DNA of 64,000 nt from positions 93,062,001-93,126,000 of the forward strand of contig OZ024741.1 of the NCBI GenBank assembly GCA_964016885.1, read 5' to 3'. The translations under genes were made by a program, and so were the position numbers. This stretch comes from Eledone cirrhosa (Eukaryota). Shown one piece after another: positions 17,100-61,730 of the stretch. A model generated the notes under the pieces. That model had not been told where the DNA came from. It worked only from the letters and a program-made list of their open reading frames with translations, and did no database searches. Numbering within the stretch: position 1 is the stretch's first letter; each line of letters starts with the position of its first letter.

Positions 17100-19920
17100 T
17101 GCAGGTGTTTTTGTATCTAATGTGTTCCAATATTTTTTTCAATATTGTCAGACAATATTTCTATCATGATATTGGCGAAAACAGCCTTTACATAATGGCA
17201 CTTTGCAAAAGGAACACATAAACGTGGTTTGAATTCCATAACATTTCATTTTTTCTCTTTTGCAAAGAGCACATTCGGCAAACCTTCTTCCTCCCATTAA
17301 TTTTCTCTACTTTGTGAAGATCAATATTTTCCGTGTTTACCTCAGATAATTTTGACTATCTCCCAGCTTTGAGTTTATGAGAAGTATATCCTCCACGTAG
17401 CTGAGAGGCAATGTCTACACAAAATTTCATGTGGCAGTAGTCCTTTGGTGGTGGAGGATTCTTGTGACTTTTAGTGAATACAATAAAAGAATTCACAATG
17501 GTTAAATTCACTAAAAACCACAAGATATATCTCCACCATTTCTTCCCAGGGCATCCAACTGGGTAGTAGGCGCAATATTGGTCGGATTTGTCAACCCCAC
17601 CCATATATTTATTATAGGAGATGTTGACTAAAGGTTTACCTTCAGCCTCAACTCCTGGTTGTTGGTTAGACCAGTGCTTCTCAAACTATCTGATGCCCTT
17701 CCCAGGGCGTCCGTGTAGTAGGCGCAATATTGGTCGAATTTGTCAACCCCACCCATATATTTATTATAGGAGAGGTTGACTAAAGGTTTACCTTCAGCCC
17801 CAACTCCTGGTTGTTGGTTAGACCAGTGCTTCTAAAACTATCTAATGTGGCAGACCGGTATTTTATTTTTTCAATGTGCCACGTACCGCTAATATTTTGT
17901 AGTAATATTAATTTATACCGGAAACGATATATATAATGAATATAATAATAGTTGACCATTTTTTTATCTATCTTCTATTTATTTTGTAAACATACAAAAA
18001 AGTAATAAAAAAAATTGCTCAAATGATTCCTTAGCATGGCCTGGACACTGGCCGCGTACCGGCACCTGATGGCTTGCGTACCGGCACAGGTCCGCGGACC
18101 ACCACTTTGAGTAGCACTGGGTTAGACGATAGGAACAAAATTTGCCGCTTGTCTTCATACAATGTGGCTAACAAGTTCCCTTTTTGTACTTGGAGAATGT
18201 CCCCTCTCTTTTTAAATTTTATGACTTTCATTTCTTGGGATAACCCTTTGATTCCCCATTATTGTACCGCAGGTGTACGTATTTACGAGGGCAAGATCCT
18301 CTGCTAGACGCACTAAAGAAAAAAAGGATCAAAATATGTGTGTCTGTTGAGTGGAAGGGTTCAGTCAGAGACCACACATCGTACCCCAAGCCACTTTTTC
18401 TCTCTCCGTTGTGTTTCTTTCCTGTGTAAACATCAAAGTTTACACAGTAGCCTGTGTCCCATTCACAGAGTTCCCACACCTTGATGCCCCATTTAGTAGG
18501 TTTAGCTGGCATATATTGTCTAAAATGAATTCTACTCTTATACCCAATCATAGCTTCATCAAGATTTTTCCCAGGTATATATACACTGTTTAAAATTTTT
18601 CAGAGAGCATTTTAATTACTGGTCGAACTTTATACAGAGGGTCATAATTACTGGTCGAACTTTATACAGAGGGTCATAATTGAAATCATTTCTACCAGGG
18701 GCATTTGAAGTATCAACCAGGTGCAAATATTGGTTTAATTTCAAATACCTTGTTTTTGGCATAAAACTCGATATATAAGCGTCGCTAAACCTTATATCAG
18801 TGTTCCAGTAATTCCACAGTCTTGGTTGGAAATTGTTTTATACCAAACAGTGTTTATGGTAAAAAACGCTTGCATCTCCGCAACATCTGTAGGTTGCCAT
18901 AACTGATCGTGTTTTCTTCGATATGAAATCTGCTGTTGGGCATATCGATTCGTCTCTTTTGCCACAACTTCGAAGACAGTTTGTGGCAAAAACAAAAAGA
19001 AATAATCCAGTGCTTTAGCATCGGAAGGTAATATATGCTGTGGACCAGTATTTTCAACAAAATCGGGAACATGTATTGGTGTGGTATTTTTCGACCATGT
19101 TGCTAAAATATCTTCAATGGCTCCCTGGAGATCTGGTTCGCTTTCACTTTCAAAACAATCATCGTCGGACGAAATTTCAGAAATATAAACATTATATTCA
19201 TTTGATAATATATCACTAATATTATCTTTTGTTTCTTGTTCATTCTGAATGTCGTCGTGTGTAAAACCTTCAAAGTCGGTATCGATACTTTCAGAAGCCA
19301 TGTTTATACAAAAAAAAAAATTTGTTCTACTTTCAAAGTTAAAAATATATAGATATATTAAAAATATATTGAATATATTAAAAATATATTAAATATATTA
19401 AATATTCATTAGTTAAGCAAAACAAGACCACAAACTTCACAAGGAAGGCATTATTAAAAGATTGTCAACATATTTTAGGAATGTAGAGAATAATAATAAT
19501 AATATTAATAATAATAATGTCCGTTTACAATTGTTTCGCTACTCCATATAATATTTCTGGATCAGATGACTATATATCATAATTGATCAGGTTCAGTTGA
19601 AAATAATTAACATATTTAAAAAAAAGAGTGGCTCATCGGAACTCAAAGGAATATAAATTAAAATAATGGGATAATGTTACATAATATAATGTTCCATATA
19701 TTGGTTTTTACTATGGTGTCTTGGTTGCATCAGCTGTCAGCCATAATCAAGCAGTATTCATCTGTCGAGGCTGCATTGTGTGAGATATGCCTATGGGTAA
19801 CAAGATGGCTGCCAAAGAGGGTGGTTTCAGGGGAAGTAACTTCTCGACAGATTGGAGATTGTGAGTATTTATAGTTAAGTGCTAGTTTTTAAATTTTTTA
19901 ATTGAGACAATGTAGGGGAG
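17100..19920 (-). mobile_element. piggyBac (PGBD4-like) transposase pseudogene
   Basis: Acidic N-terminus plus LDYFFLF..ETNRYAQQ (18792-19301), FRQYMPAKPTKWGIKVW (18228-18551), MGGVDKSDQ (17356-17604) and a Cys-rich C-terminus near 17170-17290. Element ends not established. Confidence 0.9.
17824..18119. mobile_element. hAT-type MITE nested in piggyBac, with 8-bp TSD GGTTAGAC
   Basis: Imperfect TIRs cagtgcttctaaaact / actttgagtagcactg; ggttagac at 17816-17823 and 18120-18127. Confidence 0.9.
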
Positions 19921-19943
19921 TTAACTTATAATTATCGAGTTCA

Positions 19944-22030
19944 TAGCAATTTAACTTATTAGCTACAAGTAGAAATGGGGCTACATGACTAAGAAAAAAA
20001 TAAGAATCATCCGCCAACTTGATAGTCCCCACTTCAGACTGAAGAGGTTTACATGGTTTGATTTCCAACCTGATGTTTTATTGGACAAGGTCATTTTTTC
20101 TTTGACATTTATTACGGTAGGATGTTCTATTTCGATGAGAGATCTCATGATTAATCCTTCTCTATCCTCATAGTCCAATCCAGTAATAGAAATAGGAACT
20201 CTAAAAGTACAATTCCTTAATCTTTCAATTCCGTTCATCGTATCATTTTTCCCACAATGTTTCTTTCCAAAGGCTGACTTCCAAACTCGTGATAGTGAAA
20301 TTGAAGAATTGTTGAATGACATATATTTAACATCTTTTGAAGTGACAGCTATTGATTTGTTGAACTGGACATAGAGAACTATGGTCTGGTATAACACCCC
20401 TGCCTGGTTGACATAACCACTAATCCCGCAATATGGCATTTCACAATAATGGTCGAATGGTATGATTATTCCAGCAGAATTTTCAAATCAACATAGTCTG
20501 GTCCGATCTTCATTGACATAGAAGTTTGTCTGTAGGATGGTCAAATTTTTACTACTTGTAGCAATTTAACTTATTAGCTACAAGTAGAAATGGGGCTACA
20601 TGACTAAGAAAAAAATAAGAATCATCCGCCAACTTAATAGTCCCCACTTCAGACTGAAGAGGTTTACATGATTTGATTTCCAACCTGATGTTTTATTGGA
20701 CAAGGTCATTTTTTCTTTGACATTTATTACGGTAGGATGTTCTATTTCAATGAGAGATCTCATGATTAATCTTTCTCTATCCTCATAGTCCAATCCAGTA
20801 ATAGAAATAGGAACTCTAAAAGTACAATTCCTTAATCTTTCAATTCCGTTCATCGTATCATTTTTCCCACAATGTTTCTTTCCAAAGGCTGACTTCCAAA
20901 CTCGTGATAGTGAAATTGAAGAATTGTTGAATGACATATATTTAACATCTTTTGAAGTGACAGCTATTGATTTGTTGAACTGGACATAGAGAACTGTGGT
21001 CTGGTATAACACCCCTGCCTGGAATTTATAAACGGGGTGGAGACCAGTGCTTATGGGATGGAAATAGCCCAGGAGCTCGGAATTTATTTTCCCTGTTTGA
21101 ATTAGTGTTTGTCTTGCAAGTTGACAGGATCGTATATAAAGTTGGACAGAGTCTTCTAACTTGGTTTGTTGAATAATGAGTCTAGTTGTTAAATGCCTGA
21201 TTTTGAAGTCTTGGTGACAAAGAGGTCTATGAGTCAATGATGGAATTTTTACAGAAACAAAAATTCCATCCTGGTTGACATAACCACTAATCCCGCAATA
21301 TGGCATTTCACGATAATTGTCGAAAGGAATGATTATTCCAGCAGAATTTTCAAATCAACATAGTCTGGTCCGATCTTCATTGACATAGAAGTTTGTCTGT
21401 AGGATGGTCAAATTTTTACTACTTGTAGCAATTTAACTTATTAGCTACAAGTAGAAATGGGGCTACATGACTAAGAAAAAAATAAGAATCATCTGCCAAC
21501 TTGATAGTCCCCACTTCAGACTGAAGAGGTTTACATGGTTTGATTTCCAACGTGATGTTTTATTGGACAAGGTCATTTTTTCTTTGACATTTATTACGTT
21601 AGGATGTTCTATTTCGATGAGAGATCTCATGATTTATCCTTCTCTATCCTCATAGTCCAATCCAGTAATAGAAATAGGAACTCTAAAAGTACAATTCCTT
21701 AATCTTTCAATTCCGTTCATCGTATCATTCTTTCCGCAATGTTTCTTTCCAAAGGCTGACTTCCAAACTCGTGATAGTGAAATTGAAGAATTGTTGAATG
21801 ACATATATTTAACATCTTTTGAAGTGACAGCTATTGATTTGTTGAACTGGACATAGAGAACTGTGGTCTGGTATAACACCCCTGCCTGGTTGACATAACC
21901 AATAATCCCGCAATATGGCATTTCACAATACTGGTCGAATGGTATTATTACTCCAGCAGAATTTTCAAATCAACATAGTCTGGTCCGATCTTCATTGACA
22001 TAGAAGTTTGTCTGTAGGATGTTCAAATTT
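19944..22030 (-). pseudogene. G: Endogenous rhabdovirus-like glycoprotein G fragment in three tandem copies (19944-20558, 20559-21425, 21426-22030)
   Basis: Translation C*FENSAG...(C/R)EMPYCGISG....G.F...PLC...SCQ...LLGYFHPISTGLHPVYKFQAGVL...MNGI...RVP...IEHP...SSWRMILIFFLV is colinear with recalled VSV/rabies G motifs. Multiple N-x-S/T sites; hydrophobic C-terminus. Confidence 0.8.
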
Positions 22031-23720
22031 AATGGAAAAACATGCCCAAGAGGATGGAGCAGCCATTGGTGTTAGCATTGCAGGCGACATAGCTAACTTA
22101 TTCATGGTATGGTGGGACAGTAGACTTAAACTTAAACTTAAAGAACAATTAGAAGACAGCTTAACCCTGATAATGTACTCCCGCTACGTAGATGATATAA
22201 ACATCGTAGTTAAGACACCCCCACTAGAGAACAGTCAGGAACTAGAGAAAAACACAATGGAAAGCATCCAGCAAATAGCAAACTCCATCCACCAGAGCAT
22301 TAGAGTTACTATAGACTACCCAAGTAGACACCCCAACCATCGATTACATGTACTAGACACAGAGCTCTGGTTAGATACCATTAACAACCAAAAACAAATC
22401 CTCCATTCCCATTATGCCAAACCCATGACTTCCAAACATCTGATCCACCGAAACTCGTCCATTTCGGACCATACCAAAATCAACATACTGATTGCGGATT
22501 TGGTACGGGTGATGAGAAATGTGTACCGCATGTGCAACCCCGAAGAACTAGAGAGACACATACAACACTTCATCCACCGTTTGCAGTTCTCTGGCTACAA
22601 TCAGAGAGATAGAATCAGAGTGTATAGAGGAGCCAGAACCAAATGGGAAAAAATGGTAAATAATGACATAAATGGGACCTGCCCCTTGTATAGGAGCAAA
22701 TTTTGGAATAGAATAGAAAGAACTAGGAACAAGGCCAATAGAATAAACTCATGGTATGATAGCAATAAATACCAGAGTGTAATGTTCATCAATACAACCC
22801 CTAGATGCGAACTAGCCTACAAATTTAGAAGGGCCCTAAATAAATATAAACTCAATATTAAGATAGTAGAAAGACCAGGTACCTCCGTAAAAACACTTAT
22901 TAGCAAGACATACCCGTTCCAAAGACCCTCATGTATAGATAAGAAATGTATAACCTGTAAAATAAGCCCCCATATTAACTGTAAAACTAGAAATGTAGTG
23001 TATAGCATAAGATGTACTGAAGGACAATGTAGAAACAAAAATATAGTGTACATAGGTGAGACAGCTCGTAGTATAGGGGAACGGATAAATGAACACTGGC
23101 GAGACCTTCAAGATAATAAAGAATCATCTGTACTCTACCAACATGCTAAGATAGAACACAAGGGTAAATTAGAGAACATAGAAATAAAAATAGAATCCAC
23201 ACACAGAAAAGATGCAATGTTTAGGCAAATTACAGAGGCAGTAAGCATAAAAGAATTACAACCAAAATTAAATAGAAAATATGAGTGGAACAGCAACATC
23301 ACAACTTACAATTAAGGACAAAATGAAAACACACACACACATAGAACAAACAACCAACCAACAACATGTAAATAAATAAACAAATAGATAAATGAACACA
23401 AACACACACAGACACCCGGATGTGGCGCATGCGCAAACTGAGCACACAACACACACACAGAAACAAAATGGCGTAGGACAGAAGAAAGGAAAGGCACAGA
23501 AACAAAGAAAGGAATCCCCAGTCACTGAAGAGGTCACAGAGTGTGTGACGAAAGGACTATGACTATATATAAACAACTATCTGGTTGTGGAACCAACCAA
23601 CCAACCAGAAATTTATAGGTTTGTAGATTTGTAAATTTATAAATATATAATAAATTGAAGTGAAAGCAACTGGTGCGTGTGTTTCTTATTGGCAACATGA
23701 CCCTCCCAAAGTATAACAAT
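22022..23720 (+). mobile_element. 5'-truncated Penelope-like element (RT C-terminal half, Cys linker, GIY-YIG endonuclease, 3' pLTR); possibly Nematis-like
   Basis: ORF 22008-23315: GAAIGVSIAGDIANLFM, SRYVDD, VVYSIRC...YIGETARS..ER..EH, EA..I....P.LNRK.E. Clade assignment is tentative. Confidence 0.92.
23520..23564 (+). ncRNA. Minimal type I hammerhead ribozyme in the PLE pLTR
   Basis: agtca-CTGAAGA-g-gtcaca(gagtg)tgtgac-GAAA-ggac-TA^-tgact: 5-bp helix I, 6-bp helix II, 1-bp helix III with tetraloop. Confidence 0.85.
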
Positions 23721-23758
23721 ATATATATATATATATATATATTAAAATAACAGATTAA

Positions 23759-23809
23759 AGTTTAAGCAAAGAATCGCTGCTTTCACCCTTAACGGGATCT
23801 TCTGAAACT
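23759..23809 (-). ncRNA. Variant hammerhead-like fold (core CAGAAGA)
   Basis: agttt-CAGAAGA-t-ccc(gttaa)ggg-t-GAAA-gca(9 nt)tgc-TT^-aaact; about 23 nt from the TA tract. Confidence 0.55.
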
Positions 23810-23855
23810 AACCAAGTCAATCTGAGAACGCAGAAGTGAATATTTCAAAAAACGT

Positions 23856-25157
23856 TGCCCAGGTCTCACTGCCATGCAACATTGCTGTTCGTATGCAGGC
23901 ATCATACAACCTGCCTTTCATTTTTAGGGAGAACCCTTTAGCGGCTAATAGCGGTATAAGCTCTGAACTTTTTCCATCCAGTTCTGACTCTAGCTACTGT
24001 ACTTTCAGAGCACCCTCCCCCACTGCTGATTTTGTCACCCAGGTAACGGAAGCTGTCCACTATTTCTATAGAACCCTCTGCGCAGTTGAAAGAGCTAGTA
24101 TTTTGTGGGCACTTGCTGCTACTTATTGCCCCAGAACACCGGCCACATGTAAAATCTATGTTCTTAGTTAGCTTACCTGTGATCCCACTACATCTTTTAT
24201 GCACCCATACTTTGCATTTGGGACACAAAATGGAGTTTCTACCTACGCCTTTCCTACACACTGAGCATGGCCACTTCCCGGAGGGGACCGCCGCCTTATT
24301 TTCTTTCTTGCAAACTAGAACTTTAGTCTTAGCCAGGTTAATTTTAAGGCCTTTTGATTCTAGGCCGTGCTTCCATGTTTGGAATTTCTTCTCTAGCTCG
24401 GCCATTGATTCAGCTATGAGCGTTAGATCATCTGCGTATAGGAGTTCCCATGGGCAGCCGGTCTTGAACTCCACTGTTATAGCCTGGAGGGCAATAATAA
24501 ATAGTAGGGGGCTAAGAACAGAGCCCTGATGGACACCAACTTTTACACTAAACTCTTCACTATATTCGTTGTTAATTCTAACCTTGCTGACTGTTTCTTT
24601 ATACATGGCTTGTATAGCTCTCACAAGCCATTCATCAACACCTAGTTTTCTAAGAGCCCACCAGATAATGGAACGGGGGACTCTGTCGAAGGCTTTCTCC
24701 AAGTCGACGAAAGCTAAGTATAGGGGTTTACTTTTAGCTAGGTACTTCTCCTGTAGTTGTCGTACAATGAAAAGAGCGTCTGTGGTACTTTTTCCTGACA
24801 CAAACCCGAACTGCATTTCATCTAGATCAATTCGCTCTCTGATTAGTTGCGGTATTACTTTTTCCGTGACCTTCATGACCTGGTCGATTAATTTAATGCC
24901 TCTATAGTTACTCCTATCTAGGGCATCTCCTTTACCCTTATAACAGTTAACGATGATGCTGCTACGCCAGTCCTTCGGAACAAACACATTCTGTATGACT
25001 TGGTTGACTATCCGGGTGACCATGGTGTGTCCCACCGTACCAGATGCCTTCAGCATCTCGGCAACTATTTCCGAAGCAACACCGCCTTACCCGTCTTCAT
25101 ATCTTTGATTGCCTTACTTATTATACTACCCTCGACTAACACGCCTTTCCTACACAC
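23856..25157 (-). mobile_element. Internal RTE RT fragment, truncated at both ends
   Basis: ORF 23938-25056 contains [19 protein letters not shown] and YADD; the RTE 3' end is missing. Confidence 0.95.
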
Positions 25158-40343: not shown

Positions 40344-41003
40344 CGTTGATCTAGAGAGAGGGAGAAAGAGAGCTCGTTGATCGAGAGAGAGAGAGAGGAA
40401 GGAAGGAAGGAGAGAGATAGAGACAGCGTGAGAGCGTGAGCAACAGCAGTTCATAAACATAAAAATAAATTTTTAAATTTAAATTTAAATTTAAATTAAT
40501 GAATGGAAGAAACCGGAAACATAGAGATATAGAAACACGATGTAAATGTCTGTTTACAAATATACGAAGTTATTGTAATATCAGCATATCATACAAGAAA
40601 CAACGAAATCGGGTCAAATACAGATAAGATTATACAAAATCAAACAAGATTATATCAAATTAAATTATGTTACTCAGAAAAATCAAAATTAATACAAGAT
40701 CTGCTTAAGTTAAACCAAAATGCTCTGTATGGTAGACAAACAAAAATAGAAAGCACGTGTGTGTGTTGTCTCCTATGAATGAATCATACAGTGAAAATAA
40801 ACATGTTCAAAACGGTAATATATGTAAAATATACTTCAAAATAATTGCGTCAAAGCACAAAAACTTATCTTTTTTGTATGTTTTCCTTGTCCTCTGAAGA
40901 ATTAAAACCATACATAAATCCGATTACTGTCGATTTAAAATATTAAAATTTCAAGAGACGACAATTCACGTCTTATACCAACAAGTGCCAAGCCTACTAT
41001 AAC
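36121..41003 (-). mobile_element. Full-length CR1/L2-group LINE, family B, copy 1 (ORF2 frameshifted near 38855)
   Basis: ORF1 ~39348-40103; ORF2 split into 38819-39235 and 38685 downward; 3' end (GTAAAAGA)2. Confidence 0.95.
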
Positions 41004-41133
41004 TATATATATATATATAAATATGTATATATATAAATATGTATATATATATAAATATGTATATATATAAATATGTATATATATATGTATATAAATATGT
41101 ATATATATATGTATATATATATATATGTATATA

Positions 41134-41171
<38 letters not shown>

Positions 41172-41458
41172 TGTATATATATAATATTATATATATATAA
41201 TATGTTATATATATAAATGTATATATATATAAATATGTATATATATATAAATATGTATATATATAAATATGTATATATATAAATATATATATATATAAAT
41301 ATGTATATATATAAAATATATATAATATATAAATATGTATATATGTAAATATGTATATATATAAATATGTATATATATTAAATATGTTATAATAAATTAT
41401 ATATATATATATATAAAATATATATATATATATATAATATGTATATATATAAATATCT

Positions 41459-41489
<31 letters not shown>

Positions 41490-41490
41490 A

Positions 41491-41531
<41 letters not shown>

Positions 41532-41540
41532 TGTATATAA

Positions 41541-41577
<37 letters not shown>

Positions 41578-41754
41578 TGTATATAAATATGTATATATAT
41601 ATATATATATGTATATAAATATGTATATATATATATATATAAATATGTATATAAATATGTATATATATATATATATAAATATGTATATATATAAATATAT
41701 AAATATGTATATAAATATGTATATATATATATAAATATATAAATATGTATATAA

Positions 41755-41795
<41 letters not shown>

Positions 41796-42315
41796 TGTAT
41801 ATAAATATGTATATATATATATATATATATAAATATGTATATAAATATGTATATATATATATATATATATATAAATATGTATATATATATATATATATAA
41901 ATATGTATATATATATATAAATATGTATATGTATATATATATATATAAATATGTATATATATATATATATATATATAATATGTATATATATATATATATA
42001 TAAATATATATATAAATATGTATATAAATATGTATATATATATATATATATAAATATGTATATAAATATGTATATATATATATAAATATGTATATAAATA
42101 TGTATATATATATATATATAAATATGTATATAAATATGTATATATAAATATGTATATAAATATGTATATATATATATATATAAATATGTATATAAATATG
42201 TATATATAAATATGTATATAAATATGTATATATATATATATATATATATAAATATGTATATATATATATATATAAATATGTATATATATATATATATAAA
42301 TATGTATATATATAT

Positions 42316-42346
<31 letters not shown>

Positions 42347-42347
42347 A

Positions 42348-42402
<55 letters not shown>

Positions 42403-42419
42403 AATATGTATATATATAT

Positions 42420-42450
<31 letters not shown>

Positions 42451-42517
42451 AATATGTATATATATATATATATATATATAAATATGTATATATATAAATA
42501 CGTATATATGTATATAT

Positions 42518-42548
<31 letters not shown>

Positions 42549-42575
42549 AATATGTATATATATATATGTATAGAT

Positions 42576-42608
<33 letters not shown>

Positions 42609-42609
42609 A

Positions 42610-42656
<47 letters not shown>

Positions 42657-42683
42657 GTATAGATATATATATATATAAATATA

Positions 42684-42723
<40 letters not shown>

Positions 42724-42740
42724 TGTATATATATATATAA

Positions 42741-42833
<93 letters not shown>

Positions 42834-42835
42834 TG

Positions 42836-42917
<82 letters not shown>

Positions 42918-42958
42918 TGTATATATATATATATATATATATAAATATGTATATATAA

Positions 42959-42995
<37 letters not shown>

Positions 42996-43119
42996 TGTAT
43001 ATATAAATATGTATATATATATATATAAATATGTATATATAAATATGTATATATATATATATATATGTATATATATAAATATGTATATATATATATATAT
43101 GTGTATATATATAAATATG

Positions 43120-43171
<52 letters not shown>
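41004..43171. repeat. (TA)n-derived tract, 2.2 kb
   Basis: Directly visible. Confidence 0.97.
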
Positions 43172-43172
<1 letters not shown>

Positions 43173-43245
43173 TCTTTTACTCTTTTACCTGTTTCAGCCA
43201 TCCGGCTGAGGCCATGCTGGGGCACCGCCCTTGTTGCTACACATT

Positions 43246-46200
43246 TTATCTCCAGCCTGCATAGGTTGGCCACTGGTGTAGGAGGGAGTTTGTTGCTGCT
43301 GCCCTTAGGTTTCCCTCGTGTCTTGCTGTGGGCTCATCCGGGATCCTGGACAACAAGGTGTTGAGATGTTTCTTAAAGACATCCACCTCCACGTCATGCA
43401 AGTCTCGCAGATGCCTCGGCAGCCTGTTGAAGAGTTGAGGGCCCTTGAATCCCAGGCTATTGCAATACCTGCTCCTTATTCTAGATGTGGAAGACGGGAC
43501 CTTTGGCACCACACAGTGACGTCCTGTTCGATGGTTGGTCCAGCTCCCAATGCCAAAGTTTGGTGCTAGTCCCTCCAGGATTTTCCACATGTAGATCACT
43601 GTGTATCTCTCCCGTCTTCGCTCCAAGGAGTAGAGGTTCAGCTCCTTCAGCCTCTCCCAGTAGCTTGTCTCCCTCATCTTGGCAATCCTCTTGGTGTAGC
43701 TTCGCTGGATTGCCTCAAGCTCTGTGGTTAGTTTGACACTATGGGGTGACCACAGCTGGGAGCAGTAGTCCAGGCGGCTTAGGACAAAAGTCCTCCACAG
43801 TGTCAACATGGTGTCTCGATCTCTTGTAAGGAAAGTCCTCAAGATCCAGCCAGCGAATCGTCTACATGCTGTCGCCACCTTCATGATGTGTGAAGAAAAA
43901 GATGCATCATCGCTCATGTCTATGCCCAGGTCTCGTATCGATTTTGACACGGGGATATCGGTCCCTCCTGGTCCTGTGTAGCTGTGTTCTGCTATATTTG
44001 TGTTTGTGTTTGCAGGTTTGTATTGTAGGGCTTGGAATTTGCCAGCATTAAACTGCATGTTGTTTTCTTCCGCCCATCTGTATATGGCATCCAGATCCTG
44101 CTGTAAGAGGGCAGCGTCAGCCGGGTTTATGATTGCCTGTGCTACCTTAGTGTCATCAGCATAGCTAGTGAGGGATGTTGTTGCATGCACCACAGAGGGC
44201 ATGTCTGAGAGAGCCACCAAAAACAGTAGTGGTCCCAGGACTGTCCCCTGAGGCACCCCACTTGTTATCGGTGTTTCCCTCGAGAGGGCCCCATTTGCTG
44301 CGACTGCCTGGCTTCTGTCCCTTAGGAAGCCATGCAGCCACTCACCTACTTTTCCAGTTATGCCGAGTCCGTGTAGTTTGTGACATATCATTCCGTGGTC
44401 GACCTTGTCAAAGGCCTTCGCAAAGTCAAGATATATCACGTCTACATGTGAGCTGTCTAGTAGTTGTCTCAGTACCCAGTCGTAGTGATGTAGCAGCTGT
44501 GTAAGGCAGCTTCTTCCTGGGCGGAAGCCATGTTGCGTGCTAGTCAGGTGGTCATTTTCTTCGAGGAAAGTGTTTAGTTTCTTTCTGACGACTCGCTCCA
44601 TGACCTTACTGATATGCGACGTCAGGGAGACTGGCCTATAGTTCTTGGCCTCCGCTCTACTACCTCCTTTATGGATAGGGCATATTGTGCCTTCTTTCAG
44701 CTCCCTGGGTAGTACACCGCTAGCCAAGGAGCTTCTGAAGAGCATCTTCAGTGGAGTTGCTAAGGCCCGCTTACATATTTTTAGGAGAACTGCTGGGAAT
44801 CCATCAGGTCCAGCAGCCGAGTTTGTTCTAATTTCATCAATGGCGTTCACCACATCCTCCTCCGTTATGTCTATGTGGTTGATGGTTGCCATTTCTTGAT
44901 GTAGTGTTGTGGCATCAAAGAACTCCTCTGGCTTCGTTATTTGCATGTGCCTCAGTGGACATGTGAAGACACTTTTGTACTGTTCGTTCAGTATTTCACA
45001 TATCTCTTGGGGATTTTCGGTTAATGAACCGTCCGTGTGGAAGAGTGGTCCAATCTTGCAGTGTACTGAGGCAGTTTCTTTTGCAAATTTAAAGAAGGCC
45101 TTAGGGTTTGTTTTAATGTTTTCTATGGCCCTGTTCTCTTTCCTTGCCCTCTCATTCTCATGTGAAAGCTTGAGTGCAATCTCGGTGTCAAGTAGTGCAC
45201 GTTTCAAATAGGATTCCTTCTTGTTTTGGTTTTGTTGACTATTCAACTGGTTTGAGAGTTTAGTTTTACGTCTCATAAGGATTTTCCTATCTCTGGGAAT
45301 AAGATTTTTGTGTCTGTTTGCCTCTTTCTCCGGGACACACTTTTTGCATATGGTGTGTATCGTTGTCATGAAGTGTTGAAATTGTGTGTTAGTGTGTTGT
45401 GTGGCGATGTTTGCACTCCATGTTTGCTTCCGGATTTCACTCTTAATCTTCTTCCAGTCAGCCCCGTAGACGTTAAGGCTGGATAGCGTCCCGGAGCTTC
45501 TTGGTGGTTTTGTCTCTGTTGGTTCTCTTGGACCACATATCATTAGCTCTACCAAGTTATGATCCGAGAGAATTGTTGGTGTCACCTTTACATTGTGGAT
45601 GAGCACTTCGTTGTTTGTAAAACAGAGGTCCAGGACATTTTCGCCTCTTGTTGGGAGGAGTATTGCTTGCTCCATGAACAGCCTGTGTGTGAGGGCCAGC
45701 AGGGATTCCGTCTGTCTCTGTTCTATTGACGTCATTCCAGGGAGGAGGTGGCCCTCAGGCCATTTGACCTTTGGTAGGTTGAAGTCTCCCAGCAGTAGGA
45801 TGTTGAGACCCTGGTCCAGTTTGTCAAGGACCTCTTCTATCCTACTTAGGCTATCCTCAAATTTACCCTCATGACTGGGGGCATCGGCCGGCCGATATGT
45901 GACACATATTACCGTCTGTAGTTGCTTCATATGTATTATCAGTGTGTCACAGACTGAGTTTGAATGTGTCAACAGTACAATTGGTGTGACATCTTCACGG
46001 ATATACAGAGCAACCCCACCATGAGTTCTCTCCTTCCTGTCCGAACGAAATACAGTATATTTCGGTATATGTATTTCTGCATCTGCTATACTGCTTGTCA
46101 GGTGCGTTTCGGTTAGTGCCATGCATAGTGCTTGATTGCTTATGGCTAAGTCTCCCAGGTAGGAAATTTTACTCATGTTGCTGAGTTTCACCAGGCCCCT

Positions 46201-46287
46201 GACATTCAGCAGCAGCACTGGTGTGACTTTTGGGGTGCCAGTAATGGCTGTCGGTATGACACCTGGTCTGGTGTCAGCAGCGGCCAC
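43246..46287 (-). CDS. Intact LINE ORF2 (APE and RT), 1013 aa, no ATG at the frame start
   Basis: [42 protein letters not shown]. Confidence 0.95.
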
Positions 46288-46399
46288 TCTGGCTTAACTG
46301 CGGTGGTCTCGAGTGCTGGTGTGGATGACCCTGGCTCTGGAGACGATGCAGCCAGGTCAACTGTCCCACAATCTTCTCTGCCATCACTAAAAAATTTTT

Positions 46400-47155
46400 C
46401 TAATCTGCTGCTGCCATCTGTATCTCGTCGGCATGTGCGTGCCTTCTCCTTGTTGGTGCAGCACGCGCGACATCAGCATACTTCTGGAGCGGCTTATTTC
46501 GGCTTAGGCTGGGGCATGTTGCGCGAGTATGATGGGCATAGTTCGTTTGAGACCTAGGGTGGGCGAATCTGCATCCCATCCCTGTCTCTCCATGCCAGCA
46601 TGTCCCGTTCTTGAAAAACTTGCACATTACTTGGGGTTTTTTGCTCCCAGTGTCTCGGTGCTTTCTGTTCTTTCTTTGAACAGTTGTCCACTGGTCCCTC
46701 TGCGCTTGGTTCTCCTTCGGAAGGTGATTTCGCTTTTCACCTTTGCCCTTAGCTTGTTGGTTGCCCGGCCTGCCCTCCCTGCCTGTAGCGGAGGGTATAT
46801 CATTTTCTTTCAGGTCCGTGCTTGTGCTCTCCTCCTTTTCTTTTTCCCTTTCCTTTTCCTCTTCCTTTTCCCTCTCCTTCTCCTCATCCCTCCCTTCGGT
46901 TTTCTCCTCCCTGAGGACACGGCTTAGCATCGCCATATGAGGCGCTATGAGGACATACGCCTTCTCAATTTCTTTTCTCTTTCTCTCTATCTGTACCAGG
47001 GTCCTCAGAAACCCATGGCTCTTCAGGTTCTCCGCCATCTTTTTGCTTGGTGGAGACCCATCAGCCATAGTCCACCCCTTGATCAAAACCGCTAGTTCAA
47101 TCTTCGACCAGTTTCGCTGACACCTGATTTCACATTTTTCCTGCATGCAGTCCAT
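46400..47155 (-). CDS. LINE ORF1: Myb/SANT(trihelix)-like domain, charged linker, CCCH finger
   Basis: RNWSKIELAVLIKGW...KKMAENLKSHGFLRTLVQIERKRKEIEKAY; CKFFKNGTCWHGETGMGCRFAH. Confidence 0.8.
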   Translation of the reverse strand: MDCMQEKCEIRCQRNWSKIELAVLIKGWTMADGSPPSKKMAENLKSHGFLRTLVQIERKRKEIEKAYVLIAPHMAMLSRVLREEKTEGRDEEKEREKEEEKEREKEKEESTSTDLKENDIPSATGREGRPGNQQAKGKGEKRNHLPKENQAQRDQWTTVQRKNRKHRDTGSKKPQVMCKFFKNGTCWHGETGMGCRFAHPRSQTNYAHHTRATCPSLSRNKPLQKYADVARAAPTRRRHAHADEIQMAAAD

Positions 47156-47347
47156 TTCGCTGTGGAGGGGGGAAAGAGAGACAGTGGGAGGTGTAGGGTA
47201 GAGGTTAGAGAGGGACAGAGTGAGGGAGGGAGATAGAGATATAACTCCAGCGAGAGAAAAAGAAAGAGAAACAGAAGAAAAGAAAAGAAAAGGGGGAGAC
47301 AGAAGAGGGGAGCGAGAGAGATAGCGGGAAGAGTGGGGGGGGGGTCA

Positions 47348-47396
<49 letters not shown>

Positions 47397-48063
47397 CGTT
47401 GATCTAGAGAGAGGGAGAAAGAGAGCTCGTTGATCGAGAGAGAGAGAGAGGAAGGAAGGAAGGAGAGAGATAGAGACAGCGTGAGAGCGTGAGCAACAGC
47501 AGTTCATAAACATAAAAATAAATTTTTAAATTTAAATTTAAATTTAAATTAATGAATGGAAGAAACCGGAAACATAGAGATATAGAAACACGATGTAAAT
47601 GTCTGTTTACAAATATACGAAGTTATTGTAATATCAGCATATCATACAAGAAACAACGAAATCGGGTCAAATACAGATAAGATTATACAAAATCAAACAA
47701 GATTATATCAAATTAAATTATGTTACTCAGAAAAATCAAAATTAATACAAGATCTGCTTAAGTTAAACCAAAATGCTCTGTATGGTAGACAAACAAAAAT
47801 AGAAAGCACGTGTGTGTGTTGTCTCCTATGAATGAATCATACAGTGAAAATAAACATGTTCAAAACGGTAATATATGTAAAATATACTTCAAAATAATTG
47901 CGTCAAAGCACAAAAACTTATCTTTTTTGTATGTTTTCCTTGTCCTCTGAAGAATTAAAACCATACATAAATCCGATTACTGTCGATTTAAAATATTAAA
48001 ATTTCAAATCCGGAGAGATGACAATTCACATCTTATACCAACAAGTGCCAAGCCTACTACAAC

Positions 48064-50083
<2,020 letters not shown>

Positions 50084-53000
50084 TCATCATCATCATCATC
50101 ATCAACGTTTAACGTCCGTGTTCCACGCTTGCATGGGTTTGGACGGGGGTAGTCCCACTTGAGGCAAGAGTGATTGTCTTGCTCGCATAGGACTGTCTGG
50201 CAGGTTTTCTACAGTTGGATGCCCTTCCTAACACCAACCACATTTACAGTGTGGGTCTGGGAGGTTTTTACCGTGTTGCCTACACGGCCACATTACAGCG
50301 TGGACTGTGTGTTTTTTTGTCGTGACACCTACACGATCTCATTTGTTTCGGCCTGGATGGCGCGGCACCAACATAACTTTACATAGAACGGGGTGGTGTG
50401 GATGGGGTGGGGGTGGTGGCGGGACGGGGTGTATTTTGTTAGAGATGCCTATTGGCAAGGCGGGTCTTCTGTTACTGAGTACCGCCAAAGGTCACGGTCC
50501 AGTGACATTGTCTTGGAGAGGTGTAAGTGTGTGAGGTCGGAGTTTATCAGCTCATCCCATGTTTTTCTAGGTCTGCCTATTCCGTGGCTACCGTCTATCT
50601 TTATTGCCCTGCACTTTGTAATACAGCTATCGACTTTCATGCGCATCACGTGTCCATACCAACGCAGCCTTCTCTCGAGTAAACAACATCTGATCCCTCT
50701 TATCTCTAATTTTTTCCTTAGTTCGTTTATGCTTTGCCGTTCACGTATATTACTGTTACACATCCAGCGGAGCATGCAAGCTTCGTTCCTCTCTAGTCTG
50801 CGTATATCCTCTGCACACAATGCCCAGGTCTCACTACCATGCAACATTGCTGTTCGTATGCAGGCATCGTACAACCTGCCTTTCATTTTTAGGGAGAACC
50901 CTTTAGCAGCTAATAGAGGTATAAGCTCTCTGAACTTTTTCCAACCAGTTCTGACTCTAGCTACAGTACTTTCAGAGCACCCTCCCCCACTGCTGATTTT
51001 ATCGCCCAGGTAACGGAAGCTGTCCACTATTTCTATAGAACCCTCTGCGCAATTGAAAGAGCTAGTATTTTGTGGGCACTTGCTGCTACTTATTGCACCA
51101 GAACACCGGCCACATGTAAAGTCTATGTTCTTAGTTAGCTTACCTGTGATCCCACTACATCTTTTATGCACCCATACTTTGCATTTAGGACATAAGATGG
51201 AGTTTCTACCTACGCCTTTCCTACATACCGAGCACGACCATTTCCCAGAAGGGACCGCCGCCTTGTTTTCTTTCCTACAAACTAGAACTTTGGTCTTAGC
51301 CAGGTTAATTTTAAGTCCTTTTGACTCTAGGCCGTGCTTCCATGTTTGGAATTTCTTCTCTAGCTCGGCCATTGATTCCGCTATGAGTGTCAGGTCGTCT
51401 GCGTATAGGAGTTCCCATGGGCAGCCTGTCTTGAACTCCTCTGTTATAGCCTGAAGGGCAATAATAAATAGTAGGGGGCTGAGAACAGAGCCCTGATGGA
51501 CGCCAACTTTTACGCTAAACTCTTCACTATATTCGTTGTTAATTCTAACCTTGCTGACTGTTTCTTTATACATGGCTTGTATAGCCCTCACAAGCCATTC
51601 GTCAACGCCTAGTTTTCTAAGAGCCCACCAGATAATGGAGCGGGGGACTCTGTCGAAGGCTTTCTCCAGGTCGACAAAAGCTAAGTAGAGGGGTTTACCT
51701 TTAGCTAGGTACTTCTGCTGTAGTTGTCGTACTATGAAAAGAGCGTCTGTGGTGCTTTTGCCTGACACAAACCCGAACTGCATTTCATCTAGATCAATTC
51801 TCTCTCTGATTAGTTGCGCTATTACTTTTTCCGTGACCTTCATGACCTGGTCGATTAATTTAATGCCTCTATAGTTACTCCTATCTAGGGCGTCTCCTTT
51901 ACCCTTATAACAGTTAACGATGATGCTGCTATGCCAGTCCTTCGGAACAAACCCATTCTGTACGACTTGGTTAACTATGCGGGTGACCATGGTGTGTCCC
52001 ACCGTGCCAGATGCCTTCAGCATCTCAGCAACTATTTCCGAAGGCCCAGCCGCCTTACCAGTCTTCATATCCTTGATTGCCTTACTTATTATACTCCCCT
52101 CGACTAACACTGCTGGTCCCTCTATCGGGTCGATATGGGGGAGACTGTCTTTCTCCCATTTATTCTCCTCATTTAGTAGCCTTTCATAGTGACACTTCCA
52201 AGCTACCTTCTTATCAGTGTCGGTGATGGCAAGTATGCCATCATCGTTAAGTACACACTTCTCCCCGACAATATCACGGTTTTCCTTGACGCATTGCCTG
52301 GCAATCCTGAACACCTCACGTTTTTGGTCATCGCGTTGTAGAACATGCTTGAACTTTCTTTCCTCAGCTTCCCTTCTTGCTAAGTACACTTCTCTCCTAG
52401 CTTCCCTCCTGGCCACTTGATAGTCTACTCTACTTCCCCCATCCCGCCATACTTTCCAAGCCTGCTTTTTGGCCTTAATTGACCCCTCCACCCTATTGTT
52501 CCACCACCATGTTACTCTCCTCCTGCCTACAGGCCTGCTCCAGCCACAGACTTCGTCTGTCGCCAACAGCAGGTTTGCTTTCAGAAATTTCCACTGTCCC
52601 TCTATATTGTCCGATTCTAGATGCTCTTCCTTACTGTCGAAAGCATCAAGTAATATGCTTTGAAATTTATTTCTGGCTGTGGGGTCCTTTAGTTTCCATA
52701 TTTTCCTCCTGAGGATAGTCCTCTTCTGCTGTCGGGTACGTCTCGTCCTGACTATGAGGTCGCTAATTATCAGTCTATGTTGGGAGGTGCATTCTTCATG
52801 GGGGAGGGATTTAGTGTTTACAACAGACACTCTGTCACGTCTTCTGGTAAGTATATAATCTACCTGGCTTGTGTGTTCCCCGGATCTATAGGTAATCAGG
52901 TGATTGTCACGTTTTTTGAAGTTAGTGTTACAGATAGTTAGGTTATTTGCATCACAGTATTCCAGAATTCTGGAGCCTTCCTCATTTCTAGTACCAAACC

Positions 53001-54070
53001 CATAGCCTCCATGGATTTCGTCGTAGCCGTCACAATGTTGTCCAACGTGACCATTTAGGTCGCCTGCAATAATTATATAGTCACTGTCAGATATTTGGGA
53101 GGTAGTTAGCAACAGTGTCTCATAGAATCTGTCTTATAGTGCCGGGCAGTCCGGATTGGGGTGCGTACGCAGATATTACTGTCACCGTAGTTCTATTGAG
53201 GACAAGTCTTATTTTAATTATTCTGTCGTTCACTCTATTTACGTCTATTATCTTATCTGCCCACTTTTCTGCTACCATGATTCCTACTCCACCCAGCCCA
53301 TCGTCGTTTCCCACCCAGAAAAGCTTATAACATCGTTTTTTACCCTCAATGAATCTAGCAGACCCACCCCTCCACCTGGTCTCTTGAATACAACATACAT
53401 CGACCTCCTTACGTTCAAGCATTTCTACAACCTCGTTAGCGCGACCCTTTAGGGTGCCTACATTTATGGTACCAACTCTGAAGTTTTGGGCGTCCAGATT
53501 TTTCTCTCCCTTCCACTCTCCAGGATTCCGCAGTCCGTCCGTCCATCCATCCATCCATCATATATCGAAGGCAACCGGGCAAGCGATAGTATATGCCTCT
53601 GGCTTATGATTTGGTCCGCGTAATAATAATAATGGTGATGCGTGGGGGTGGGGGGCTCTGGCTTATAATAATGGTGGTGATGCGGGGGGGGGGGGGGGGG
53701 GGGGGGGCTCTGGCTTATGATTGGTCCACGTATTAAGTATGGTGGCGTGTGGGGGCGGGAGGGAGGGGTGTGGGGTAGCTAGCTGGAAGGTTATGAATGT
53801 TTAACAAGCGATTTAACAAAAAGCAAAACTGCAAGATTTGTTCTGTTCAATACGACAAAAACACCGTATTTAAACCTTAAATAGATAACAAAAAAATACA
53901 GATTTCGGATTTTGCGAGATTGGATGTTTGTTTGGACTATGTACGGAATTGAGCGTGGAAATGGAGAGAAGAATTTGTACTTTACGATTTACATGAGTCC
54001 ATCATAGAAATAATTGAAGCAGCGGTGGATTGGCGAAAGTGAATAAACATATATATATAAGTGAATAAAC
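50084..54070 (-). mobile_element. Full-length RTE LINE (APE-RT with PHD insertion); frameshift near 53135 and small deletion at the stop codon
   Basis: ORFs 53120-53554 and 50449-53112; (TGA)n tail; 5' UTR with three ctctggcttat... repeats (53597-53760). Confidence 0.95.
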
Positions 54071-61339: not shown

Positions 61340-61536
61340 GTATATATGTATATATATATATATGTATGTATATGTATATATATATATATATGTATATATG
61401 TATATATATATATATGTATATATGTATATATATATATATGTATATATGTATATATATATATGTATATATGTATATATATATATGTATATATGTATATATA
61501 TATATGTATATATGTATATATATATATGTATATAAG

Positions 61537-61571
<35 letters not shown>

Positions 61572-61590
61572 ATATATATATGTATATATG

Positions 61591-61661
<71 letters not shown>

Positions 61662-61698
61662 GTATATATATGTATATATATATATATGTATATATATG

Positions 61699-61730
<32 letters not shown>

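Follow-up and report, generated by a model that had tools for sequence, protein, structure and literature searches.

The window analysed in this study is a stretch of 64,000 nucleotides from Eledone cirrhosa, in which two Penelope-like elements (PLEs), of families C and A, stand head-to-head, with a tripled viral fragment enclosed by their 5' truncation points. The left host flank contains a decayed piggyBac-type transposase fragment on the minus strand (17900-19345; PF13843, E 1.7e-6; 89% identical to a copy in locus L093). The left PLE piece, arm C (19402-19993, minus strand), is the 3' arm (3' UTR) of the putatively Hydra-type family C. It is followed by three minus-strand viral units that carry the C-terminal half of a rhabdovirus-type glycoprotein (G) gene: unit 1 (19994-20552), without an in-frame segment of 252 nt; unit 2 (20609-21419), the long unit, with this segment (21023-21274); and unit 3 (21476-22021), with the same deletion as unit 1. 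The units are separated by two identical joints on the plus strand (20553-20608 and 21420-21475), each composed of a 6-nt filler and a 50-bp copy of arm C. On the right, the end of unit 3 shares a microhomology of 11/12 nt (22019-22030, plus strand) with a young, 5'-truncated family A PLE (22019-23722, plus strand), which ends at a (TA)n target (23720-23743), and the end of a third high-copy repeat, D, follows on the minus strand (23744-23856). Repeat D also adjoins TA runs and is interrupted by an RTE-type LINE; it is no continuation of arm C or of the piggyBac fragment, so that no target-site duplication surrounds the insertion. The two flanks are unrelated to each other, and neither a target-site duplication around both parts nor an empty allele came to light. 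Target-site duplications of PLEs are often not discernible in microsatellites, as described in the available part of PMC8557442.

The viral nature of the repeated unit, which the first-pass annotation had proposed, was borne out by the central domain of class III G proteins in unit 2 (PF24833, 44.7 bits against a cut-off of 27.2, E 1.7e-11). The nearest relative is P0001, a rhabdovirus-type G of 520 aa that carries fusion and central domains and is about 41-42% identical; unit 2 aligns to its residues 201-470 (41%). The three tandem units occur at one locus in the 3 Gb genome and are integrated in the host, being located on a 416-Mb contig with a joint to host repeat that is spanned by a contig of run X1. 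No L gene is linked to the glycoprotein fragment. Searches with the fragment gave no homologue among longer proteins or in PDB, the search with P0001 returned only P0001 itself, and 53 pattern matches among viral contigs yielded 0 confirmed relatives; a further candidate, P0002, was dropped as a spurious repeat protein. In the mRNA sense, the viral 3' end lies inside the membrane-anchor codons and is joined to arm C, and the hallmarks of an L1-type processed pseudogene, a poly(A) tail and a target-site duplication, are absent at the locus. At the other end, unit 3 stops 13 nt before the viral end that is present in units 1 and 2, where the viral frame continues beyond the position of the family A join. 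Units 1 and 2 match P0001 from residue 201, with identity at K and L immediately beyond the A crossover, and the A-joined reading of unit 3 matches only from residue 213 (207 in another alignment); the support for these terminal viral letters comes from one homologue only. Derivation of the last letters of units 1 and 2 from the PLE, by a duplication ending 12 nt into A, was also considered and is disfavoured by the same homology to this single homologue. The locus also records a divergent rhabdovirus-type virus in the host lineage.

In each joint, the 6-nt filler is an inverted copy of arm C sequence, and the 50-bp piece is an exact copy of the arm C end (19944-19993), so that each repeat unit holds 50 bp of left flank. 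Joint 2 is spanned without differences by a 124-nt contig of run X1. The 252-nt deletion of units 1 and 3 is in frame and lies at a 5-nt microhomology (20403-20407 in unit 1). Differences among the units were clustered, 7 of the 20 falling within 25 nt (p 0.0013), and this clustering is not explained by simple DNA duplication. Eight of the 20 were synonymous (p 0.04 plain, 0.10 with transition bias), and by inspection no ADAR-type bias was seen among them. Run X4, from another sample of the study of X1, gave 324 nt of unit with mixed unit variants, which was not reproduced in a second look-up. The RAD run X5 was at most 3 reads deep on the viral parts, contig depth is no measure of zygosity or copy number, and no RNA run was present among the listed sequencing runs that hold the stretch.

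The 5' truncation of arm C coincides exactly with the left viral junction. The break falls 2 nt before the stop codon, and the virus begins directly there, in viral mRNA sense and thus in the same sense as C; the 3' end of the arm adjoins AT-rich DNA. Family C shows a DKT motif, a CxCX5C linker, no CCHH, CxxC and CxH around E and N, and a (TA)n target, all Hydra-type features according to the available text of PMC8557442, and by these sequence motifs it is assigned to the Hydra clade. An RWK motif and a canonical hammerhead were not found in 5 longer family C loci, none of them full length, and Rfam reported no hammerhead in loci L008 or L210. Interpretation of 19400-19993 as a fold-back DNA transposon, or as further viral coding sequence, was discarded when longer copies gave reverse transcriptase and endonuclease. 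Among 54 uncensored family C arm ends, TA follows 6 and is missing from 48, and in many listed cases the arm passes into a further piece of C, so that jumping at the 5' break is common in this family. A truncation hot spot at the break was rejected: just 2/54 uncensored ends lay in 620-630, of which one is artefactual, caused by a 17-nt reference gap, and the search for such a site gave 1 close match and none in 37 further loci. On the one side that could be scored, the C-virus join showed no microhomology. Some five indels are private to arm C, one of them being unique genome-wide (a 24-nt pattern search returned this copy only), and these indels may mean that arm C is older than the virus; a 54-nt pattern was too long for the C subfamily to be judged. 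A piece inside the C copies L008 and L018 that had the look of captured sequence proved to be a SINE-like insertion in an ATT run, and an in-frame fusion of G to the last codons of C was dropped since it holds against one deleted C copy only.

The family A element is 96-99% identical to other copies and differs from the family majority at 11 of 1704 letters, 5 of them private. Its motifs comprise DKS, YVDD, a CX4CxxC linker and VVY..C....C...YIG, with a GIY-YIG endonuclease of CCHH type. Compared with the available description in PMC8557442, it has the reverse transcriptase and GIY-YIG domains, the two internal Cys and the CX2-5CxxC linker of canonical PLEs with a C-terminal endonuclease (EN+). 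The linker motif points to the Neptune/Nematis type, the two not being told apart. Hammerhead-like core letters occur at 23525, with no Rfam match there or elsewhere in 19300-23900, and Pfam offers no useful model for the PLE endonucleases here.

The viral sequence is joined directly to the 5'-truncated reverse transcriptase of this element, as the first-pass annotation had described: 29 other family A copies continue through the breakpoint, reading CAT-ATGTTCAAATTT-AATGG at the truncation site. Its letters for 22017-22030, its reading of the sibling units 1 and 2 and the FKFNEK motif of the PLE at 56808 were reproduced. So was the anti-mRNA orientation of the viral part relative to family A, so that at the 5' break of A the viral mRNA is not in the sense of the element. 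The microhomology it reported is real, and its length is 11/12 nt and not about 8, with the crossover inside the ATG at 22019-22021, placed there since the T by which unit 3 departs from its siblings is a family A letter. A match of 11/12 would be expected at about 1 in 10,000 random joins (p 9.5e-5) and exceeds anything seen at 28 other internal PLE joins, of which the best matched at 9/12. The missing TA spacer, previously regarded as unusual, is ordinary: of 29 family A loci, 3 ran past the sequence examined, and among the 26 scorable 5' ends TA stands directly upstream in just 3, one further end being TA-rich, in line with the arm ends of family C. Short re-copied fillers, small versions of the joint described here, are present at five family A 5' joins, and a 2-bp loss, private to this copy, lies 20 nt from the virus join. 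The join is seen in the assembly alone, since it is bridged by none of the contigs listed for the four runs that hold the stretch.

The relative ages of the parts depend on what is counted. With indels included, private events numbered 6/1704 bp in A against 10/594 bp in arm C (p 0.002), and differences of all kinds numbered 20/1629 in the viral units against 5/1704 in A (p 0.002); A is therefore younger than arm C and the viral units if indels or all unit differences are counted. Substitutions alone gave 6/594 in arm C against 11/1704 in A (p 0.41), and scattered unit changes gave 11/1629 against 11/1704 (p 1.0), so that substitution dating alone does not separate arm C, the viral units and A.

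Elsewhere in this genome, the predicted enrichment of PLEs near viral integrations did not appear: a PLE protein match lay within 2.5 kb of 0/12 other viral loci, against 9/40 random 10-kb stretches, which also illustrates how dense these elements are. Protein probes would miss arms of unknown PLE families that consist of 3' UTR only, and the viral survey covered three Pfam families, with a stricter first look for L, giving at least 13 loci in total. Two of the 12 other loci hold mRNA-sense pieces of the L gene that are joined to same-sense 5'-truncated ends of RTE LINEs, and the C3 L locus sits within an LTR pair. Head-to-head arms are common in A and C, and mixed-family mirrors occur at L029 (B then A) and L045 (an RTE end then A).

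The reading that we prefer, with a probability of about 0.4, is that the reverse transcriptase of C captured viral mRNA and that A annealed later by microhomology. The virus likely entered through a jump of the left, Hydra-type reverse transcriptase onto viral mRNA; the right element need not have copied any viral RNA and was probably attached afterwards. In such a sequence of events, C cDNA, synthesised from left to right as the plus strand, would have switched template within the membrane-anchor region, passing to the G mRNA, of which about 810 nt were copied. Folding back on arm C, the free end would then have left the inverted filler, annealed anew 50 nt short of the break and been re-copied to give a tandem unit; one unit may have lost 252 nt at microhomology, and the array would have expanded to at least three units. 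Finally, A would have primed at the neighbouring (TA)n, and the 11/12 match would have let the end of its cDNA pair with that of the viral DNA, a join present in the assembly whose timing is conjectural, and this attachment may have trimmed the last viral letters and anything in between. Genomes of negative-strand viruses are wrapped in nucleoprotein, and mRNA is the accessible template; U6-L1 chimeras have the same-sense shape of the C-virus join. This reading is supported by arm C being a PLE 3' end with the virus at its truncation in mRNA sense, and by the two same-sense RTE-L joins among 12 loci together with the fillers at five family A joins. The frequent jumping of C at its 5' break, the viral letters of units 1 and 2 past the A crossover and the younger age of A by indel counts speak for it as well. 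It is weakened by the single locus, by the 0/12 PLE neighbours and by a PLE density that makes chance neighbours easy, and also by the rejected hot spot, the overlapping substitution ages, the private indels of arm C and the clustering of unit differences.

Much of the same anatomy would also arise if viral cDNA, made by any reverse transcriptase, had been end-joined into a break in an older C copy, followed by fold-back filler and tandem amplification, with A joined later by a microhomology deletion and both PLE neighbours incidental. Repair of the polymerase-theta type typically leaves a templated filler in inverted orientation, a re-copied flank and multiple microhomology deletions, and the filler, flank copies and deletions found here fit it; the higher number of indels in arm C than in A, the dense PLEs, a right-hand match exceeding all 28 other internal joins and the lack of a target-site duplication also speak for such an origin. 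We consider it possible but somewhat less likely, given that it presupposes that a PLE of the matching sense was hit by chance and that the rest of C was lost entirely, that two other loci of this genome, with their same-sense RTE joins, indicate capture by retroelements as a route, and that similar fillers occur at ordinary family A joins. A single mirror-type event, in which arm C and captured mRNA, possibly of several molecules, were primed on the left and A on the right until the strands met at the 11/12 match, is unlikely. It agrees with the head-to-head arms common in both families and known for PLEs (available text of PMC8557442), with the mixed-family mirrors, with overlapping substitution ages and with a match at the very end of the viral unit, and unit differences that cluster and are partly synonymous would be consistent with several viral templates; however, joints and a deletion that are each identical twice are hard to obtain through separate RNA rounds, and A is younger by indels or by all unit differences. 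The bolder form of this idea is given a similarly low chance: two unrelated PLE families would have made one mirror insertion in a germ cell, the Hydra-type reverse transcriptase re-copying G mRNA three times, with one or perhaps more viral RNA molecules as template, and the end of the product being sealed against Neptune/Nematis-type cDNA.

The broad idea of the first-pass annotation, PLE-mediated virus capture, survives, whereas its choice of the join at 22019 as the capture point is not favoured. A switch of the family A reverse transcriptase at 22019 onto genome-sense viral RNA, with the rest following, would account for a seamless, homology-guided join at the 5' truncation of A, and template jumps of A do occur, at L029 onto another family. 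Such a switch is nevertheless improbable: units 1 and 2 hold viral letters absent from unit 3 and, with their frame running past the A join, cannot be DNA copies of it; a second PLE arm, in the sense of the mRNA, forms the left end; the 11/12 match, against a best of 9/12, is atypical of A's joins; A is no older than the other parts; and genome-sense RNA is a poor template. The alternative raised earlier, viral mRNA copied on an inverted arm, comes close to the anatomy; the annotation had missed that the left flank is this second arm. Very improbable, finally, is an assembly artefact in which the tandem array was mis-joined to a high-copy repeat at a chance overlap. None of the listed contigs bridges the virus-A join and both sides are repetitive, but unit-specific variants, the private segment of the long unit and joint 2 are represented by contigs from the runs of sample S1 (perhaps the source of the assembly itself), the overlap spans just 12 nt, one of them mismatched, and the A copy has its private 2-bp loss close to the join.

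Germ-line entry of RNA viruses without reverse transcriptase is usually credited to LTR elements and L1. In the available part of PMC5497376, such integrations in Aedes are linked to LTR retrotransposons (Gypsy, Pao), and Penelope elements are not enriched near them (0.2-0.28% against 0.42% genome-wide). The present locus resembles those cases in having a rhabdovirus gene fragment beside a retroelement, for which template switching of the reverse transcriptase was proposed, and the C3 L locus is of the same kind; unlike the LTR cases, the neighbours here are PLE arms. As in L1-made bornavirus-like elements (PMC8554740, available part), the mRNA of a negative-strand virus would be the template for target-primed reverse transcription; unlike them, this locus has no poly(A) and no target-site duplication, and the virus is internal, 5' of the retroelement 3' end. 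With respect to PLEs, the available text of PMC8557442 describes complex tandem/inverted insertions with an inverted 5'-truncated arm by the main copy, (TA)n targets and no visible target-site duplication, features which are shared here, and notes that an in vitro system for PLE transposition is lacking. Transport of a 4-kb host module by PLE repeats has been reported (PMC6431247, available part); unlike that cargo, the sequence here is viral, was tandemly re-copied with 50 bp of arm and, being at one locus, was not moved again. In the open, non-subscription literature searched, no report of a PLE-made RNA-virus junction was found. In U6-L1 5' chimeric retrogenes, foreign RNA lies in the same sense at a non-LTR 5' truncation, and L1 twin priming gives head-to-head arms with microhomology. 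This locus is similar in its same-sense foreign RNA at a 5' truncation and in head-to-head arms joined by microhomology, and it differs in having viral RNA as the partner, a PLE as the element and arms from different families.

In conclusion, a PLE-made junction, if true, adds a telomerase-related reverse transcriptase to the known entry routes of RNA viruses. A foreign single-copy sequence amid a mirror insertion is a natural marker of the strand and template used by each arm, and the three junctions of the locus, with their differing empty-allele predictions, allow a direct test of the readings. If the mirror insertion of two families were true, then together with the two RTE-L joins it would make 5' template switching by non-LTR and telomerase-related reverse transcriptases a regular route of RNA-virus capture in this genome.

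In the window (G000:C2:93062001-93126000, in a 3.0-Gb animal genome), where retroelements and TA runs are dense, a repeated minus-strand unit carries the coding sequence for the C-terminal half of a glycoprotein, G, of rhabdovirus type (PF24833, E 1.7e-11), and its closest relative in a search of 1.84 billion representative proteins was P0001, an unnamed 520-aa G (42% identity). From left to right, the locus consists of a piggyBac fragment, an arm of a Penelope-like element (PLE) of family C (19402-19993, minus strand), three viral units (19994-20552, 20609-21419 and 21476-22021) separated by two joints (20553-20608 and 21420-21475), a 5'-truncated PLE of family A (22019-23722, plus strand), a (TA)n run and a third repeat end. 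DNA and protein searches of the genome found the glycoprotein fragment at this locus only; the locus is real and unusual, and it is a single case. A continuation of C or of piggyBac was looked for in the right flank and neither was found, so there is no target-site duplication. Elsewhere in the window, 35000-53200 holds several long, near-identical LINE copies with TA microsatellites between them, as well as RTE-type copies in which a PHD finger follows the reverse transcriptase (RT), and at 61160-64000 a frame without a Pfam match stays open for at least 946 aa.

The flank to the left of the virus belongs to a high-copy repeat, family C, whose features (DKT motif, CxCX5C linker, no CCHH, CxxC and CxH around E and N, (TA)n target) match those that PMC8557442 lists for Hydra-clade PLEs. 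Neither an RWK motif nor a canonical hammerhead was found in five longer loci, none of full length (the latter with Rfam on L008 and L210). In the window, the arm comprises 3' UTR and breaks off 2 nt short of the stop codon; viral sequence in mRNA sense starts at this break. Judged from its sequence, the C-virus join has the right shape for a capture: same sense, a putative mRNA template, and a position directly at the 5' break. No truncation hot spot of the family was found at this break. Arms of family C ended without TA in 48 of 54 uncensored cases, and many ran on into another C piece. The arm at 19402-19993 carries about five indels and six substitutions; several of the indels lie at 2-nt microhomologies, and they are more numerous than in sister copies, which may reflect either error-prone copying or greater age. 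In L008, L018 and other copies of family C, the same ATT runs have repeatedly received a SINE-like insertion of about 190 bp.

The two joints are identical: in each, the viral end is followed by 6 nt of filler, which match arm C in inverted orientation, and then by the final 50 bp of arm C, which have the same letters in all three places. An in-frame stretch of 252 nt, present in unit 2, is absent from units 1 and 3 at a 5-nt microhomology. One in-frame stop near the unit start is common to all three units, and unit 3 has another besides. Over 543 shared positions, units 1, 2 and 3 have 1, 8 and 11 private differences, respectively, of which 8 of 20 are synonymous where 21% would be expected (p 0.04; allowing for transition bias, 0.10). 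These differences are clustered (7 of 20 within 25 nt, p 0.0013), with runs of synonymous codons (p 0.00015, a post hoc statistic), which may mean that more than one viral RNA was copied. The clusters lie at 21927-21951 and 21730-21736 and are mostly synonymous or conservative.

The first-pass annotation placed the capture at the right-hand end, where, as one of two options, the RT of family A would have switched at 22019 onto genome-sense viral RNA. Family A is a young family with many copies: of 541 candidates, the 40 that were scored were 98-99% alike. The letters at the join are as described there, and the microhomology is present but longer than the reported 8 nt or so: family-A copies read CAT-ATGTTCAAATTT-AATGG at the break position and viral units 1 and 2 read GG-ATGGTCAAATTT-TTAC, a match of 11 of 12 nt (chance per random join 9.5e-5), with the crossover within ATG 22019-22021. 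The missing TA spacer, taken as exceptional, is ordinary for the family, since TA stands at only 3 of 26 scorable 5' ends. At five family-A 5' joins (L023, L024, L026, L027 and L035), short stretches were re-copied two or three times.

Three results indicate that the A join is probably not the point of viral capture: the frame beyond it, the match length and the age of A. Units 1 and 2 keep the viral frame past the join: their alignment to P0001 begins at residue 201 and includes an identical K and L, but that of the A-joined reading of unit 3 begins only at residue 213. Unit 3 therefore cannot have been the DNA template of units 1 and 2. The 11/12 match looks like annealing of DNA ends and not an ordinary RT jump, because the best 12-nt identity at 28 other internal joins of A, B (a further PLE family) and C pieces ranged from 2 to 9, with two joins at natural ends set aside and joins with filler poorly registered. 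A suitable site was available: between unit 2 and family A, 12-mers of this kind number 29 and form about 14 clusters; the join lies at the last one along the unit. By some counts, A appears to be the youngest part of the locus: its 1704 bp hold 5 private substitutions and a single indel, while the 594 bp of arm C hold 5 private substitutions and about 5 indels (p 0.002), and the 5 substitutions of A compare with 20 unit differences in 1629 (p 0.002). By others, A does not differ from arm C (substitutions against the family majority, p 0.41) or from the units (the 11 scattered changes only, p 1.0). A switch by the RT of A onto genomic RNA is accordingly very doubtful; negative-strand viral genomes are encapsidated.

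The anatomy of the locus, the families and their orientations, the microhomology and the restriction of the fragment to one place are established; the RNA template, the enzyme and the order of events we infer as follows. In the best reading (probability roughly 0.4), C captured viral mRNA, the array formed and A was attached later. After priming at the AT-rich target on the left, the RT of C would have reverse-transcribed its own 3' UTR and then jumped onto G mRNA; the loose end would have folded back and been re-copied into the array. Later, A would have primed at the adjoining (TA)n, and its cDNA would have paired with the viral DNA end. U6-L1 chimeras have a comparable same-sense shape, and L1 twin priming yields head-to-head arms. 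That capture by C and arrival of A were a single event with the same chemistry is rather improbable, although mirror insertions of mixed families exist at L029 (family B with A) and L045 (an RTE end with A). Taking both timings together, capture by C is slightly favoured. Fillers are typical of polymerase-theta repair, and a repair-driven insertion of the virus into an older C copy is the strongest rival, though less likely. An assembly artefact is hardly credible: joint 2 is bridged by one contig of the sequencing run X1, although the runs of this sample may be the assembly's own source.

A survey with three Pfam families found 12 further viral loci, comprising four L and eight N, whose element context was RTE in two, an LTR pair in one, beside Gypsy in one, next to a Helitron in one and unassigned in seven. 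At L080 (G000:C27:16996369) and L076 (G000:C23:16220923), mRNA-sense L fragments join directly onto the ends of RTE LINEs that are 5'-truncated and have the same orientation; viral homology ends about 140-150 nt short of the joins, with the frame open up to them. These two loci parallel the C-virus join in shape. The L fragment of L080 is scrambled into many pieces, 57-100% like the L copy on contig C3 in short protein matches. That copy, L074-L075 (G000:C3:130159731-130173709), is a long rhabdovirus-type L fragment lying with antisense Gypsy pol between 245-bp direct repeats 99% alike and, on this structure, is a candidate for viral sequence transported within a young LTR element. At L098 (G000:C28:117479801-117485050), an N-fragment tandem array stands beside Gypsy, with a period of 1796 bp and at least three units 98-99% alike, and may extend further left. 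In the N copies L091, L092, L093 and L094, frames of 320-393 aa are open; the sequence downstream is common to L091 and L094, which may mean that one copy duplicates the other or that a single virus gave rise to both. The suggested enrichment of PLEs near viral loci was not borne out: no match to a PLE protein lay within 2.5 kb of any of the 12 other loci, against 9 of 40 random 10-kb stretches that contained one, so chance neighbours are easy to obtain. At one of the 12, a PLE-like RT lies some 3 kb off.

LTR-linked integration with template switching (PMC5497376) and bornavirus elements made by L1 (PMC8554740) are known routes for RNA viruses, mirror insertions of PLEs and host cargo are on record (PMC8557442; PMC6431247), and R1 LINEs with viral domains are known, a direct template switch being held unlikely there (PMC4686597). 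No report of a PLE-made integration of an RNA virus was found in titles, abstract starts and passages of the open literature. Should the left junction prove to be the capture that its shape suggests, the locus would be a new form of virus capture by a retroelement.
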